45,176 nt of DNA, from the sequence record NC_073324.1; one strand, written 5' to 3'. Source of the stretch: Escherichia phage vB_EcoS-22664BS2. Below the pieces are notes generated by a model. The model searched no databases and was not told where the DNA came from. It was given only the letters and a program-made list of their open reading frames with translations. Made by a program: the position numbers and the translations under genes. Within the stretch, counting starts at the first letter, position 1; every line of letters begins with the position of its first letter. Below are positions 3,124 through 10,001 of the stretch, one piece after another.

Positions 3124-3356
3124 TTACCAGCATTCCTAACCTTATTAAAGAATTTGGCACGATGGCGGAGACGTGCCGACAAACAGGCCTCAACGAAATG
3201 ACGATTGCGAAGTACAGCAAAGACGTGAAATGCGAGCGCCATGTAATTTATAATAACCGCCTTATGACGCACGTTAAGACAAGCCCGGTGTTATTCACGC
3301 GCCGTGGTATCACTAAAACAGAGCAACGCATTGCGCGAGAGGAGAGCGGGGAATGA
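3120..3356 (+). CDS. hypothetical protein
   Basis: ATG at codon 9 of track ORF 3096..3356, ATGA overlap with upstream stop. Confidence 0.45.
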   Translation: MITSIPNLIKEFGTMAETCRQTGLNEMTIAKYSKDVKCERHVIYNNRLMTHVKTSPVLFTRRGITKTEQRIAREESGE

Positions 3357-3625
3357 TTGAATATGATAACTACCACATAAACCGGTGTGAGGCACTTGAA
3401 TTTTTGTCCAGAAACTTCCACGATTTCCCAGAACACATGCCTAATGTACGCGAAGTTGCGGAGGGTATTTCCGAGAACATATTCAAAGGCTGGCGATTCG
3501 TCGTTATTGATTCTGGTGAGTTGGTTTTCGCTGATTGCCTTTCACCATGTATTCGTAAAATAGACCTTGAGGAATTTAATGCAACTTTTAGTCTTTCCGA
3601 ATGCCTGGGTTATAGCGGTAGCTAA
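3353..3625 (+). CDS. hypothetical protein
   Basis: ORF track; ATGA coupling. Confidence 0.5.
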   Translation: MIEYDNYHINRCEALEFLSRNFHDFPEHMPNVREVAEGISENIFKGWRFVVIDSGELVFADCLSPCIRKIDLEEFNATFSLSECLGYSGS

Positions 3626-3682
3626 CGACCATTACGGCGGCGACGGTAAACGAGCGCCACGCCACGGCCTATATAACTGATA

Positions 3683-3708
3683 CAAGCCCTCTACGGAGGG
3701 CTTTTCTG
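3683..3708 (+). terminator. intrinsic terminator
   Basis: AGCCCTC-TACG-GAGGGCT hairpin followed by TTTTCT. Confidence 0.55.
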
Positions 3709-3801
3709 TACATCCCGCCCAATCCCCTTATATAATCCCTTTAGACGCGTAGGGCGCGTCTGGTGCGCTCTGATGGTCAGACGCATATGCAAGGGGATTC
3801 T

Positions 3802-4311
3802 ATGAAGCTGAAACTTAAGCAGCCATCGCCAGAGGTGGTACAAGCTGCACATGAAGAAGCTGTTAGCGCAAACCGTCGCCGTAAACGACCGCGCGGTAAA
3901 CAGAGCCTTTATCAATCATCCCGTAATTCCGCCGCGTTGTGGGACCCGGGCTATTGCGATGCACTAATCGAGTTCTTCGACCGCACGTCGTGGGAGCTTG
4001 TGCCTACGTCTAAGGGTGACGAACGCCCGCTGATTCAGGATAAACCACCGTCACTGGCCCGCTTCGCCTTACACATCGGAGTCACTATCCCGATTATTAA
4101 GCTTTGGCTGCGTGAGATTCCCGCATTTGCAGAAGCCTGGGAGACAGCACAGGCGCTGGAAGAGGCATACTTCACTGAAACGGGGGCCGCAGGCATCTCT
4201 GCTACGTTTGCTGCCGCGAAACTGGGCCTGAATAAAACAGTTGTCGCCGAAGAAGTACGCGACGAGCCAATCAGCGAAGTAACAATTAAGGTGGTGTCCG
4301 GTGAACGTTAA
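3802..4311 (+). CDS. terminase small subunit (putative)
   Basis: Immediately upstream of and overlapping the large terminase; HTH-like segment; AGGGGA RBS before ATG 3802 (codon 14 of track ORF). Confidence 0.55.
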   Translation: MKLKLKQPSPEVVQAAHEEAVSANRRRKRPRGKQSLYQSSRNSAALWDPGYCDALIEFFDRTSWELVPTSKGDERPLIQDKPPSLARFALHIGVTIPIIKLWLREIPAFAEAWETAQALEEAYFTETGAAGISATFAAAKLGLNKTVVAEEVRDEPISEVTIKVVSGER

Positions 4312-5572
4312 TATCACGGCAACGGAGCCGCAAGGCGCGTTTCTCGGTATGCATTGCAAGTTTCCGGCATTCGTAGCTGGCTTCGGTACGGGTAAATCCG
4401 AAGTTATGTGCAACTCTGCACTACTCGACAGCATGGAAGGTGGTAGCGATTCTATCATCGCCATGTATGAGCCGACTTATGACCTGGTGCGCCTCATCCT
4501 TGCACCGCGTATGGAAGAAAAGCTCACCGACTGGGGTATCCGGTACAAATACAACAAGTCTGACAACATAATCTATACGTCTTCCGGACAATTTGGGGAT
4601 TTTGTTCTGCGTACACTTGATAATCCAGCACGAATCGTTGGCTACGAATCGTTTCGTGCGAAAATCGACGAGTTGGACACCCTTAACATGGAGCACGCCG
4701 AGCACGCGTGGAACAAAGTCATCGCCCGTAACCGCCAGTTGCCGCGGACATATAAACCTATTACACCGAAACCTGCTAATACCGTTTCCGTGTTCACTAC
4801 CCCGGAAGGATTCCGTTTCGTACATGACCGCTGGGTAGTCAAAAAGAATCCAGGCTACGAGATGATTCAGGCGTCCACCCTGTCTAACCCGTTCCTGCCA
4901 GAAGATTATGTGCAGTCGTTACGCGACACATACCCAGGTCAGTTGATTGACGCCTACATCAACGGCGAGTTCGTCAACCTGACGGCGGGGACTGTCTATT
5001 ACGCCTATGACCGCAGGAAAAACAGCAGCCGCGAAACAATAAAACCAGGCGAGACTCTGTATATCGGGCAGGACTTTAACGTAGGCCACATGGCTAGTAC
5101 AGTTTACGTGCAACGTGGCAAAGTCTGGCATGCAGTCGCCGAGTTGGTGGATATGTTCGATACGCCCGATGTGGTGAGAGCCGTAACAGAGCGCTGGAAA
5201 AGTAAGGGCCACTATATCGTTATGTACCCCGACGCAAGCGGTAAAAACCGTAAAAGTAACAACGCCAGCACATCTGATATTGCCCAGTTACAGCAGGCCG
5301 GCTTCGAAGTGCGCGCTAAATCGACAAACCCACCGGTTAAAGACCGCGTAGCGGCGATGAATAAGGCGCTTGAATCTGGTATGGTCATGATTAATGAACA
5401 GGCCTGCCCAGTTACGGCGCGATGCCTGGAACAGCAAGCCTACGACAAGAACGGCGAACCGGATAAATCCGGGGGCGTGGACCACCAGAATGATGGAACC
5501 ACATACCCTATCGCGTATGAAATGCCGATTCGCAAACCAGTTATTAACGTCCCGGTGACTTTCGCACTTTAA
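4301..5572 (+). CDS. terminase large subunit
   Basis: Walker A GFGTGKS near N-terminus, size and position before portal; GTG start with AAGGTGG RBS. Confidence 0.85.
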   Translation: MNVNITATEPQGAFLGMHCKFPAFVAGFGTGKSEVMCNSALLDSMEGGSDSIIAMYEPTYDLVRLILAPRMEEKLTDWGIRYKYNKSDNIIYTSSGQFGDFVLRTLDNPARIVGYESFRAKIDELDTLNMEHAEHAWNKVIARNRQLPRTYKPITPKPANTVSVFTTPEGFRFVHDRWVVKKNPGYEMIQASTLSNPFLPEDYVQSLRDTYPGQLIDAYINGEFVNLTAGTVYYAYDRRKNSSRETIKPGETLYIGQDFNVGHMASTVYVQRGKVWHAVAELVDMFDTPDVVRAVTERWKSKGHYIVMYPDASGKNRKSNNASTSDIAQLQQAGFEVRAKSTNPPVKDRVAAMNKALESGMVMINEQACPVTARCLEQQAYDKNGEPDKSGGVDHQNDGTTYPIAYEMPIRKPVINVPVTFAL

Positions 5573-5584
5573 GAGGATTATTCA

Positions 5585-7063
5585 ATGTTAACTATGAACG
5601 GTCAGAATCAGGGTGTTAAGACAAAACACCGGGAATGGCTGCATCACTTCAATAAATGGCAGAAGGTACGCCACGCTCTGGAGGGCGACCTTATTCGTTA
5701 TCTGCGCAATGTCGGAAAGAACGAACCTGACCCTACCTACGCGGAACAGCGCCAGGAAGAATATGAGAACGGCGCTATTTGCTACAACTTCACTAAACGC
5801 ACCCTGGCCGGGATGGTTGGTAGCGTCATGCGCAAAGACCCTGAGCAAATTATTCCTCCTGAGCTTGAGTACTTGTTACGTAACGCCGATGGTTCAGGTG
5901 TCGGGCTGTGGCAGCACGCGCAGGACACGCTAATGGAAATCGATTCTGTGGGCCGTGGTGGGTTGCTGGTCGACGCCCCGGAGACAGCTGCGGCAACGGC
6001 AGCCGAACAGAACGCGGGATTATTAAACCCGGTCATCGCATTCTACACCGCGGAGAACATCATCAACTGGCGACTGACACGCATCGGATCCGTTAACCGC
6101 GTGACGATGGTCGTGTTGCGTGAGGTATGGGAATACTCAGAACCTGGCGCAGAGTTCGAAACAAAGTTCGGCGAGCAATATCGTGTCCTCGACCTGATTG
6201 AAGGCCGTTACCGCCAGCGCATTTACCGCTTCGATGCCGAAGGTGGCGCTCAGGATGAAGTAATCGAAATCTTCCCGGAACTCGGCGAACAGTTACGCGG
6301 CAAAATCCCGTTCACGTTCATTGGGGCGAGCAACAACGACGCCACTATAGATGATGCACCTTTGCTGCCGTTGGCCGAGCTAAATATCGGACATTTCCGA
6401 AACAGCGCGGACAATGAGGAGTCCAGCTTCGTTGTAGGTCAGCCCACGCTGTTCATCGCCCCGGGCGAGAACATGAGCATGGAACAGTGGAAAGAAGCCA
6501 ACCCACACGGCGTGCGCATGGGGTCGCGTTCAGGCCATAACATTGGTTACGGCGGTAATGCGTTTCTGGTTCAGGCAGGAGAGAACAACCTTGCCAAGCA
6601 GAACATGCTGGATAAAGAGAATCAGGCCATCCAGATTGGTGCGCAGCTTATCACCCCGACGCAGCAAATCACCGCTGAATCGGCCCGTCTACAACGCGGT
6701 GCTGATACGTCCGTTATGGCAACAATCGCACGTAACGTAAGCATGGCGTATACCAATGCGTTGCGCTGGGTAGCGGCGATGCTGGGGCTGCGTGAAGGCA
6801 CAGAGATTGAGTTCAAGCTGAATATGGAGTTCTTCCTGCAACCAATGACCGCTCAGGAACGCGCTCAGTGGATGGCGGATATTAACGCTGGCCTGTTACC
6901 GGCTACCGCTTACTACGCTGCGTTGCGCAAGGCGGGGATAACTGACTGGACTGACGAGGACATTCAGAACGCTATTGAGGACGCGCCGCTGCCGTTAGGT
7001 GCTGTTGCTCAGGTAGCAGGAGAGATTCCGCAGTCGGCACAGCAGGAAGCGCTGCCTGCGTAA
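5585..7063 (+). CDS. portal protein
   Basis: 492 aa, directly after terminase and before head morphogenesis protein. Confidence 0.8.
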   Translation: MLTMNGQNQGVKTKHREWLHHFNKWQKVRHALEGDLIRYLRNVGKNEPDPTYAEQRQEEYENGAICYNFTKRTLAGMVGSVMRKDPEQIIPPELEYLLRNADGSGVGLWQHAQDTLMEIDSVGRGGLLVDAPETAAATAAEQNAGLLNPVIAFYTAENIINWRLTRIGSVNRVTMVVLREVWEYSEPGAEFETKFGEQYRVLDLIEGRYRQRIYRFDAEGGAQDEVIEIFPELGEQLRGKIPFTFIGASNNDATIDDAPLLPLAELNIGHFRNSADNEESSFVVGQPTLFIAPGENMSMEQWKEANPHGVRMGSRSGHNIGYGGNAFLVQAGENNLAKQNMLDKENQAIQIGAQLITPTQQITAESARLQRGADTSVMATIARNVSMAYTNALRWVAAMLGLREGTEIEFKLNMEFFLQPMTAQERAQWMADINAGLLPATAYYAALRKAGITDWTDEDIQNAIEDAPLPLGAVAQVAGEIPQSAQQEALPA

Positions 7064-7085
7064 GACCAACAACAGAGATAAAATT

Positions 7086-7110
7086 AAGGCCCCATAAGGG
7101 GCCTTTTTAT
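7086..7110. terminator. terminator between portal (+) and a minus-strand small gene
   Basis: GGCCCC-ATAA-GGGGCC hairpin followed by TTTTT; sits between convergent genes. Confidence 0.6.
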
Positions 7111-7392
7111 CTATACAAATGTAAATCCAGTGCTGGTAGCGGTGTAACTGGTGGCGCCGTTTTTCGTTTCGGGCCAACAGATATACGAGCGCCCGCGATA
7201 CTCTACCCACCAAAGTTCCACATCGGAGTCCCCGTTAGGTCTAGTCAACCACCCGTGGTGTAGCCAATACTTGCGCCCTATTTTAAATATATCTTCTTCA
7301 CTGGAAGTCCACTCCTGAGCGACACACTCTACCTGAACGCTATCAACACATACACATGTAAGATATAAATCACTGTTTGAATATTTAGCCAT
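7111..7392 (-). CDS. hypothetical protein (93 aa), moron-like insert in head module
   Basis: Internal ATG at codon 37 of track ORF; own promoter and RBS; opposite orientation to flanking structural genes. Confidence 0.5.
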   Translation of the reverse strand: MAKYSNSDLYLTCVCVDSVQVECVAQEWTSSEEDIFKIGRKYWLHHGWLTRPNGDSDVELWWVEYRGRSYICWPETKNGATSYTATSTGFTFV

Positions 7393-7427
7393 TTCTAAAT
7401 TCCTTATCTCTCGTTTCGATGCAATGA

Positions 7428-9007: not shown

Positions 9008-9036
9008 AAAAGGCCCCATTAAGGGGCCTTAGTTTT
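9008..9036. terminator. bidirectional terminator between convergent genes
   Basis: AAAGGCCCC...GGGGCCTT hairpin with T/A runs on both sides. Confidence 0.6.
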
Positions 9037-9239
9037 CAACGGAATCTTGTGTTTAAATCCTGCTCGTGGACGACCCTCAGAACAGTGTCATAATCCCCGT
9101 ATCTTCCAGGTTCAAATATATCTAATGCCTTGTAAGCAGACATTGCGTCAGGGAAAACCTGCAGAACCTTTTTAACACGGCACAAGTCACCGTCGAACTC
9201 TTCATCGAACTCTTGAACTACTTCGCAAATTGCATACAT
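9036..9239 (-). CDS. hypothetical protein (67 aa), moron-like
   Basis: ORF track; own promoter, GGAGGTG RBS and terminator. Confidence 0.5.
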   Translation of the reverse strand: MYAICEVVQEFDEEFDGDLCRVKKVLQVFPDAMSAYKALDIFEPGRYGDYDTVLRVVHEQDLNTRFR

Positions 9240-9266
9240 TTTTCACCTCCTGCTTAAGTTAACTGA

Positions 9267-9295: not shown

Positions 9296-9361
9296 ACTAT
9301 TTATTCGACTATTCCAGTTATTCCGCTCAATTGTAAATGTTGGAATAAACTATTCGAATAG

Positions 9362-9390
9362 TTGACTTTTCACTGAAAATGTGCTAAGCT
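9362..9390 (+). promoter_or_regulatory. sigma70-like promoter with extended -10 (TTGACT-N17-TGcTAAGCT) driving ncRNA candidate 1
   Basis: Same promoter architecture repeated at 41851-41879. Confidence 0.5.
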
Positions 9391-9393
9391 CCA

Positions 9394-9597
9394 CCTGAGC
9401 TTGTGAAGTATGAACAAGCGACCGCGGCGCGGGCAGGTAACGGAGCGGGACGTAAGTCCTGAGTGTAGTTACGCTGACGCGTTCGGAAGGGCCATAGTCT
9501 ATTGCTTGTGTAAAAAGTAACTGGTTTACTGAGATTACGCCGTTTCTATGTTTAAATGATAAGGACTAGCGCCCCGCTTTATGGCGGGGCTTTACTT
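9394..9597 (+). ncRNA. candidate structured non-coding RNA, copy 1
   Basis: Promoter upstream and hairpin plus T-run terminator at 9569-9597; first 38 nt identical to 41883-41920, rest aligns with indels. Confidence 0.4.
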
Positions 9598-9614
9598 ATC
9601 GAGAAAGGAGAAAC

Positions 9615-10001
9615 ATGAATCTTAAAGCAACTGTCGTAGCGGGAGCATGTTTCATCATCCTGGCTTACACACACGGCATCTACCAGTACCGCATCGGCTG
9701 GAACGAAGGCCGGGCGAATCTCGTTTCTCAGCAACAGCAGAAAGCACAGGCCGAGATGACTAAGAAAACACAACGGCAGCAGCAGGACGAATCAAAGGCC
9801 GCAGCCGCTGACAACGAAGGCAAGACGAAATCAGAGGTGATCACCCGTGAAGTCGTTAAGTACATTAAAACGCCTGGTCGCAGTGTGTGCGCTTTTGACC
9901 CTGAGCGCGTGCAGCTCAAGTCCCGCGCCGTCGCAAACGCCAACTCCATCCCCGGATACGACGATGATGCAGCCGCCGTGCAAACTGGCAGCGCCAAGTA
10001 G
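9615..10001 (+). CDS. i-spanin (Rz-like)
   Basis: N-terminal TM segment, then Gln/Ala-rich coiled coil; AAGGAG RBS. Confidence 0.6.
   Translation: MNLKATVVAGACFIILAYTHGIYQYRIGWNEGRANLVSQQQQKAQAEMTKKTQRQQQDESKAAAADNEGKTKSEVITREVVKYIKTPGRSVCAFDPERVQLKSRAVANANSIPGYDDDAAAVQTGSAK

Follow-up and report, generated by a model that had tools for sequence, protein, structure and literature searches.

Guanidine-II (mini-ykkC) riboswitches are built of two short GC-rich hairpins with invariant loop bases, in this case ACGR tetraloops, lying just 5' of the ribosome-binding site. In the ompA 5' untranslated region, a stem-loop at the 5' terminus, with hardly any unpaired bases before it, reportedly stabilises E. 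coli mRNA, as described by Emory, Bouvet and Belasco in 1992. The put RNAs of phage HK022 are nascent RNAs of ~70 nt that form two stem-loops, putL being located "just downstream of PL"; through them, E. coli RNA polymerase becomes resistant to pausing and termination without protein factors (PMC9378689). Here, we analysed a stretch of 45,176 nucleotides from Escherichia phage vB_EcoS-22664BS2 (NC_073324.1), the whole of which is called the window below. It is essentially a complete Kagunavirus genome (Guernseyvirinae), with the gene order of phage NTEC3 and, at 3300-4400, 98-99% identity with Escherichia phages vB_EcoM_SHAK7858, phiEc3 and K-01. Between a promoter and its small terminase gene terS, 44 nt form two adjacent hairpins that are very probably a functional RNA structure of the sense strand. 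We tentatively favour a cis-acting 5' leader RNA that would protect the 5' end of the terS-terL-portal transcript and set its expression. Like HK022 put, it would be a cis-acting nascent RNA directly 3' of a sigma-70 promoter heading a phage operon, the start being a predicted one here. Unlike guanidine-II riboswitches, it has NGG triloops, no Rfam match and no sign of a ligand.

The original prediction had described only the first of the two hairpins, as an inverted repeat with arms AGACGCG (3743-3749) and CGCGTCT (3755-3761) around a TAGGG spacer, located between a terminator and terS and not followed by a T-run. Its sequence and coordinates are exact, the arms being perfectly complementary; the repeat does lie between a terminator-like hairpin (3684-3703) and terS, and the absence of a T-run was confirmed, the sequence that follows being GGUGCGCUC. 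Three features had been overlooked, namely a second hairpin directly 3' (3763-3786), a sigma-70-type promoter with 10 of 12 matches directly 5' at a distance of 6 nt, and a likelier terS start at ATG 3802. By itself, a single GC-rich 7-bp repeat is unremarkable, because many such repeats are found both in the window and in shuffled sequences. Perfect 7-bp inverted repeats with loops of 3-8 nt number 40 in the window versus 17.2 +/- 5.3 in dinucleotide shuffles, and those with at least five G/C per arm number 28 versus 4.8 +/- 2.3, this excess of GC-rich repeats being mostly due to terminators. The pattern AGACGC-N3-12-GCGTCT occurs a single time in the window (0.07 expected), and a third copy of AGACGC is present at 3779-3784. 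The reality of the repeat as a feature rests on its context and conservation, not on the 7-bp repeat alone.

As RNA, the 44 nt from 3743 to 3786 fold into two adjacent hairpins (-22.4 kcal/mol, z -3.15), U3750·G3754 forming an eighth pair in hairpin 1 and leaving an AGG triloop. The order terminator, promoter, hairpin 1, hairpin 2, terS was found in Kagunavirus, Jerseyvirus, TS6-like, phiEap-2-like and Dhillonvirus phages and in the uncultured L229, L247 and L248, and fifty IMG/VR loci with close TerS relatives have the same block; the repeat is thus strongly conserved in relatives, one of the two points on which the original prediction had staked its validity. In the most distant carriers (Salmonella phage TS6, Enterobacter phage phiEap-2, Dhillonvirus L-h 1M, L229, L247 and L248), TerS identity is ~30% and the stem sequences differ, while the order, the TATAAT, a distance of 6-9 nt to hairpin 1, a linker of 1-2 nt, a Shine-Dalgarno sequence (SD) and terS are kept. 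Jerseyvirus hairpin 1 reads AGACGCUC/AGG/GGGCGUCU, or GGGUGUCU with a G·U pair, and its hairpin 2 reads AUGCG-C-UAUGA/UGG/UCAUA-CGCAU, which amounts to a C-G to A-U double change. Other stem variants include AGGUGCGC/GCGCGUCU, AGAUGGC/GCCGUCU, AGGUGGU/GCCACCU, GUGGCCC/GGGCCGC and UGGCGC/GCGCUA, and across lineages the upper stem of hairpin 2 shows double changes from C-G to A-U and from U-A to G-C or C-G. The triloops, (A/U)GG in hairpin 1 and UGG in hairpin 2, and the core AUGGU are invariant in all lineages, the core being present in 19 of the 19 variants listed. The AGG or UGG of hairpin 1 is closed by C-G or U·G and the UGG of hairpin 2 by A-U, and the loop-to-loop spacing is exactly 23 nt in every lineage.

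In each of the eight lineages measured, 6-9 nt separate the -10 box from hairpin 1, which would leave 0-3 unpaired 5' bases if initiation occurs at the usual distance. The hairpin block is 12-20 nt from the start codon, a more variable distance. Genes located 5' of the block are unrelated between lineages, with no conserved regulator gene directly upstream, which places the beginning of the conserved unit at the terminator and promoter. In a structural scan covering 2.8 Mb, a figure that counts both strands and takes in ~100 unrelated viral contigs, the double-hairpin signature was found only 5' of terS homologues, and once in the window; a looser pattern scan of viral contigs gave mostly chance hits among the matches listed. 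No second copy was detected in the window or related loci by either the structural scan or the covariance model presented below, and 5,426 complete E. coli genomes, in which prophage copies were sought, gave no match to the element. The sole match among GTDB species genomes (L260) is on an 18,987-bp contig of a Taishania pollutisoli assembly (NZ_JACVEL010000022.1); its TerS is 92% identical to that of the window, its leader is the Jerseyvirus version, and it probably represents phage DNA that contaminates the assembly, not a prophage.

The pairing was then assessed across lineages. RNAalifold applied to a plain MAFFT alignment predicted both hairpins, with compensatory changes in 7 of 11 predicted pairs. 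As Dhillonvirus hairpin 1 was out of register in this alignment, an ungapped alignment of 15 sequences was used to build a covariance model (R1), and the rest were aligned to the model, giving a final alignment of 24 distinct sequences and 18 pairs. When pairs were counted independently in an ungapped, in-register comparison, standard pairs made up 100% at almost every position of the stems, and a single position could have as many as five pair types; this count and RNAalifold agree with the final alignment. The model recovers held-out elements (Dhillonvirus, E-value ~1e-3; L229, 0.01; L247, 0.08) and matches the window once, at 3743-3790 (66 bits, E-value 2e-14), whereas 0.9 Mb of control contigs gave one weak false match. 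In the final alignment, 98.8% of cells pair versus 87.7% in column shuffles, slid-partner controls giving 16-60%. Double-sided, compensatory changes are found at 9 of the 18 pairs, and the covariation score is 0.345 versus 0.143 in shuffles, a value reached by none of 500 shuffles.

Where only one side of a pair has changed, the result is almost always G·U or U·G and very rarely A·C. In 10 of 10 lineages, the sense strand adopts the same two-hairpin shape and its fold is more favourable than that of the antisense strand, the mean difference being 3.5 kcal/mol. Since G·T positions are half-site mismatches in DNA, these data point to a structure of the sense transcript and not to a palindromic double-stranded DNA site. 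We consider it highly likely that the element is a functional RNA structure of this strand, and of the two roles that the original prediction had offered, that of a regulatory hairpin is the one upheld: compensatory and wobble substitutions fit a sense RNA hairpin, and the terS transcript is predicted to begin with this hairpin. A loop-to-downstream pseudoknot, GAUGG/CCAUC (3821-3825), was discarded, as judged by eye it is not conserved in Jerseyvirus.

The features of the locus are collected in Table 1. The hairpin at 3684-3703 is the end of the upstream small-gene operon; its T-run overlaps the -35 region of the terS promoter, and it was not flagged by a simple terminator scan because part of the T-run was counted as stem. 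A counterpart exists in every lineage, with compensatory changes in Jerseyvirus (AAGCCCGC...GCGGGCTT). The promoter is likewise found in all lineages, with TATAAT or TACAAT as the -10 box and a TTG-containing -35 box at 16-18 nt, while the spacer sequence diverges; in the TS6-like L122, the promoter scan found TTGCCT-17-TATAAT at the homologous place. In the window, the start is predicted to be A3743, 7 nt past the -10 box and the first base of the repeat. Both hairpins were rejected as intrinsic (rho-independent) terminators: hairpin 2 is followed by AUAUGCAAGG, there is no U-tract directly 3' of either, and neither was flagged by the terminator scan. A scan of the + strand flagged no terminator-like site from 3503 to 7086. 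Since the next such site is the one at 7086-7105, the leader heads a terS-terL-portal unit of ~3.4 kb. TerS belongs to phrog_3064 'terminase' (E-value 1.6e-74), and the large terminase subunit contains Terminase_6N/6C domains.

Table 1. Features of the terS leader locus and of the genes that follow it.
Feature	Position	Strand	Sequence or remark
Terminator-like hairpin	3684-3707 (hairpin 3684-3703)	+	AAGCCCTC-TACG-GAGGGCTT and T-rich tail, then TTTTCTGT
Sigma-70-type promoter	3707-3736	+	-35 TGTACA (3707-3712), 18-nt spacer, -10 TATAAT (3731-3736); 10/12 matches
Two direct anti-SD copies	3721-3729 and 3734-3742	+	AATCCCCTT and AATCCCTTT; complementary to the terS SD region AAGGGGATT
Hairpin 1	3743-3761	+	AGACGCGU / AGG / GCGCGUCU; 8 pairs including U·G; predicted transcript +1 to +19
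Linker, single unpaired G	3762	+	1-2 nt in all lineages
Hairpin 2	3763-3786	+	GUGCG-C-UCUGA / UGG / UCAGA-CGCAU; 10 pairs, one bulged C, UGG triloop
SD AAGGGGA and terS ATG	3791-3797 and 3802-3804	+	both unpaired in the promoter-initiated leader fold
terS, terL, portal	3802-4311, 4301-5572, 5585-7063	+	genes served by the leader (3802-7063)
Strong bidirectional intrinsic terminator-like hairpin	7086-7105	+	AAGGCCCC-ATAA-GGGGCCTT and TTTTATCT; first 3' of the leader, past portal

The terS start is likely ATG 3802, preceded by AAGGGGA, and not an upstream in-frame codon. Several records (L008, L015, L028, L035, L048 and L239) begin terS, and some the genome record itself, at an in-frame GTG or ATG without SD, a codon placed within hairpin 2 or just 5' of it in the linker (window counterpart 3763-3801). 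Many GenBank records have terS starts annotated in hairpin 2 or in the linker before it, which are probably wrong. A 10-codon open reading frame (ORF), MVRRICKGIL (3773-3805), starts from the AUG in the hairpin 2 loop, and its TGA overlaps the terS ATG (ATGA). The same ORF/terS overlap is found in TS6, while length and frame differ in other lineages, so that an upstream ORF starting from this invariant AUG is probably not conserved and was not retained.

The two anti-SD copies lie in the promoter spacer and in the -10/discriminator region. As both precede the predicted start, only read-through transcripts would contain them. In the read-through context, the SD is paired (-39.2 kcal/mol, z -2.28), and the anti-SD/SD duplex of the window has an energy of -15.1 kcal/mol (z -2.8). 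Of 11 relatives tested, 5 show significant complementarity and the others little or none: besides the window, it reaches significance in L037, L038, L054 and L248, and it is weak or absent in TS6, L229, phiEap-2, L011 and L247. There is some covariation (TACAAT with AUUGUA), an example being AUACAAUCCU with AGGAUUGUAU in the Jerseyvirus L037. This arrangement resembles that of T4 gene e (lysozyme), soc and I-TevI, in which early read-through transcripts have a masked ribosome site and the late promoter lies within the hairpin; in gene e and soc, only transcripts from the internal promoter are translatable. Here too, the SD-complementary sequence lies just 5' of the promoter -10 box and overlaps it, so that only upstream-initiated transcripts could form a masking helix. 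However, an efficient-looking terminator already precedes the promoter here, the complementarity is found in about half of the lineages, and the T4 cases have no counterpart of the two conserved hairpins. From this pattern, anti-SD pairing appears to be a lineage-specific extra and not the core function.

The reading that we favour, with some reserve, is that of a 5' leader of the terS-terL-portal mRNA. Host RNA polymerase would start at or next to A3743 from the conserved promoter, and the first 44 nt of the transcript would form the two adjacent stem-loops. With 0-3 unpaired 5' bases, the hairpin would act as a cap and block 5'-end-dependent decay, that is, removal of pyrophosphate by RppH and entry of RNase E, an effect that is expected because ompA-type 5' stem-loops act in this way in E. 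coli. The SD, 4 nt past hairpin 2, would stay free, and promoter-initiated transcripts would be both stable and translatable, while in this phage read-through transcripts carrying AATCCCCTT and AATCCCTTT could have the terS ribosome site paired and masked. As in ompA-type stabilisers, a second hairpin precedes the ribosome-binding site and the SD is accessible, and the first hairpin would lie at the extreme 5' end of the predicted transcript. In those stabilisers, however, structure suffices and sequence is unimportant, whereas here the loops, the spacing and parts of the stems are shared between genera, so that something beyond passive protection is implied. The invariant NGG triloops and the fixed 23-nt spacing suggest that a specific partner, either an RNA-binding protein, possibly of the packaging module, or RNA polymerase, reads the loops.

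Several points weigh against this reading. The +1 assignment is a consensus prediction for these phages, and the covariation statistics come from ~8 independent lineages, with a 24-sequence alignment that was fitted to the model. Protection of a 5' end needs a single hairpin of any sequence; stabilisation alone is thus incomplete as an explanation, as it leaves the invariant loops, the AUGGU, the bulge of hairpin 2 and the 23-nt spacing unexplained. Moreover, with significant complementarity in only about half of the lineages, anti-SD pairing cannot supply the core function.

Another explanation could be that the element is an RNA operator, in which a phage protein, for instance TerS in an autoregulatory loop, or a host protein reads both NGG loops and sets translation or stability of the terS-terL-portal mRNA. 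Loops, AUGGU and loop distance that stay constant while stems co-vary are what is usually seen when a loop is specifically recognised. A dimer or a protein with tandem domains would fit a pair of similar loops with constant spacing, 4 nt separate hairpin 2 from the SD, and the terS-terL-portal module keeps the element whatever genes lie upstream. However, no candidate protein emerged and known RNA-binding motifs fit none of the loops, which contain no GGA as CsrA sites do and are neither boxB-like nor GNRA-like pentaloops, so that a CsrA site and a lambda boxB were both rejected. The 12-20 nt to the start codon also vary more than the 6-9 nt to the promoter, and for this reason the 5' end seems to matter more than the ribosome site. 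We regard an operator as doubtful, though worth keeping in mind. A polymerase-acting RNA is a further candidate that we hold to be unlikely: like put, it would reduce pausing and termination by its own RNA polymerase and let late transcription pass strong terminators. Slightly less probable still is its more explicit form, in which a compact, protein-independent RNA binds its own polymerase as a functional analogue of put, structurally simpler and evolutionarily separate, and in which, with the same small probability, late transcription of the virulent Guernseyvirinae and Dhillonvirus would resist pausing and the strong bidirectional terminators flanking moron-like genes. The leader directly follows a promoter as putL does, both RNAs consist of two stem-loops, here one base apart, the first helix begins at +1 to +3, for the leader by prediction, and the apical loops are G-rich. 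In addition, putL starts AGACG...GGCGCGUCU at +3, nearly the AGACGCGUAGGGCGCGUCU of the window, and the HK022 PL region, AU-AGACG-AACGGCG-CGUCU-UUAAACC..., is numbered in agreement with the cryo-EM pairing of A3-G7 with C15-U19. Strong intrinsic terminator-like hairpins lie between late genes (7086, 9571, 11962 and 16355), the promoter scan found no convincing + strand promoter from 7105 to the next head gene, a terminator-like hairpin fills the 70-nt gap between portal and head genes in NTEC3, and one Dhillonvirus locus has a strong terminator ~5 kb 3' of the leader. In put, read-through of terminators is promoted in cis and depends on the beta' zinc-binding domain of RNA polymerase; for the leader, the downstream terminators are circumstantial evidence of such an action. 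The annotations of the relatives examined include no Q- or N-like protein; no search was aimed at such proteins. Against this, put is an H-type pseudoknot (S1, 3-7/15-19; S2, 10-14/30-34) with a minor-groove triplex strand (U21-C25) and a long stem II containing non-canonical pairs, whereas the element, 44 nt versus ~70 nt, consists of plain hairpins of 8 and 10 pairs; pseudoknot and triplex strand are missing, as is the S2 helix, which a loop of 3 nt in hairpin 1 cannot form. The put blocks AACGGC, AAACCAUGCGUCGG, GGCGGG, UCAGGA and CGGCAAU, taken from six sequences (HK022 putL and putR, HK639, phiEt88, CobraSix and S9-5), are all absent from the element. Because the put S1 helix co-varies within its own family (GUCG/CGAC, UACCG/CGGUA), the AGACG/CGUCU identity with putL is probably a coincidence, and model R1 gave no match in the HK022 early region at E-values up to 10. 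Membership of the put family was therefore excluded by the six-put alignment and the covariance-model search. Further, put RNAs serve early operons of temperate lambdoid phages and the element serves the packaging operon of virulent siphophages; the terS-portal unit contains no internal terminator, L122 has only a weak terminator 3', and hairpins inside late operons may equally be leaky terminators or 3' stabilisers. The lambda nut sites (boxA/boxB) are also promoter-proximal RNA hairpins of a phage operon, and Kagunavirus hairpin 2 contains a boxA-like CGCUCU; this was set aside as a nut feature since it is found in Kagunavirus only, and unlike in nut, the loops are not GNRA-like pentaloops and no N-like protein is annotated.

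The remaining explanations place the signal in the DNA or deny that there is one. The original prediction had considered a protein-recognition site near packaging initiation, and a DNA-level site could be either a pac element for terminase or a site bound by some other protein that recognises double-stranded DNA, for instance an operator spanning +1 to +19. Headful phages such as P22 and SPP1 have their pac sites in or next to terS, and the element always accompanies this TerS family. The repeat is a perfect palindrome with ACGCGT that overlaps the predicted start, a frequent place of repressor operators, and a third AGACGC is close by. However, the arms change freely as long as RNA pairing is kept, and changes in one arm only are of the G·T kind, a mismatch in a DNA palindrome. 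A headful pac site would be expected to give a series of virion DNA ends at or close to it, and to conserve bases and not pairing potential; here the stems co-vary and the sense strand is favoured in every one of the 10 lineages. The third AGACGC is lost in Jerseyvirus and was rejected as a protein-binding repeat, the N-terminal region of TerS is highly diverged between lineages while the loops are constant, and the operator-like box of this phage (AATAGTnnnCTATT, see below) is absent from the terS promoter. K1G/K1H-type phages have large terminases that group with those of headful packagers (PMC5582158), and in PhageTerm analyses of relatives, the genomes come out as permuted and lacking defined termini: "no obvious genomic termini" for the Kagunavirus fBC-Eco01 (PMC9825357) and redundant, permuted, random ends for the Jerseyvirus SeF1 (PMC9409062). 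GenBank and IMG records that start near the site reflect annotation conventions and not physical ends, and genome ends deduced from them were discarded, as these starts coincide with annotated ORF starts in hairpin 2 or with the TATAAT box. The records of Dhillonvirus SO-1, EP23, EK99P-1 and relatives (L241-L245), for instance, all begin exactly at the TATAAT of the terS promoter, a shared curation convention. In view of the co-varying arms, the G·T half-site changes and the lack of fixed termini in the one Kagunavirus and the one Jerseyvirus analysed, the packaging-site part of the original prediction is not supported; pac recognition at the repeat is unlikely, and a DNA-level site of any kind improbable. 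A chance repeat without function has a negligible probability. Although a window as long as this one should contain ~5 GC-rich 7-bp repeats by chance, chance is ruled out by conservation and covariation across lineages in which TerS is only ~30% identical.

A search of 3500-4000 against Rfam 15 at E-values up to 10 gave only a spurious minus-strand nos_TCE match (18.8 bits versus 60), and the whole window gave no match at gathering thresholds. In the full-text literature on Guernseyvirinae promoters and terminators and on put-like elements, we found no description of the leader. We propose that it is a new conserved cis-regulatory leader RNA without an Rfam family, which looks similar to put but lacks its defining features. 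A Kagunavirus 'phage promoter' consensus, tgAATAGTa-ccTATTat-T, was published from fBC-Eco01 (PMC9825357) and is an element distinct from both the leader and the terS promoter. It corresponds to the palindromic box AATAGTnnnCTATT, present ~12 times in the window (1419, 7427, 9266, 9357, 18818, 31904, 35460, 38266, 38310, 42164, 43277 and 43435) and absent from the terS promoter. With up to two mismatches, and both strands counted, the box has 35 matches versus 10 expected, and it overlaps the -35 or the -10 of early-type promoters. As no RNA polymerase is annotated in the phage, a statement from annotation without a dedicated search, the box looks more like a phage-repressor operator or a shared promoter core.

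Other regulatory features were noted among the late genes. At 9353-9600, a promoter-like TTGACT-17-TAAGCT is overlapped by a AATAGTTGACTTTT box and followed by ~190 nt without a long ORF; a strong terminator (9571-9590) closes the region shortly 5' of the gene at 9615. The region has a folding energy of -74.8 kcal/mol (z -1.98) and no Rfam match, and it could be a small RNA or a leader-terminator for head genes of the lambda PR'/6S type. Two small minus-strand genes (7111-7400 and ~9040-9245) lie between late genes, each with the conserved box 5' of it and both bracketed by bidirectional AAGGCCCC...GGGGCCTT terminators (7086-7105 and 9010-9030), a moron-like organisation; NTEC3 has only a 70-nt gap at the position of the first one.

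Kagunavirus, Jerseyvirus and Dhillonvirus are among the commonest phage isolates of E. coli and Salmonella and serve as therapy candidates and synthetic-biology chassis, and their gene regulation is essentially uncharacterised. The 44-nt element marks the start of their packaging operon, and the leader offers a concrete and readily mutated handle on the control of terminase and portal expression. If the loops contact RNA polymerase, the element would be a second and much smaller solution to RNA-only antitermination, and if they bind a protein, it would provide a new RNA-protein regulatory pair.

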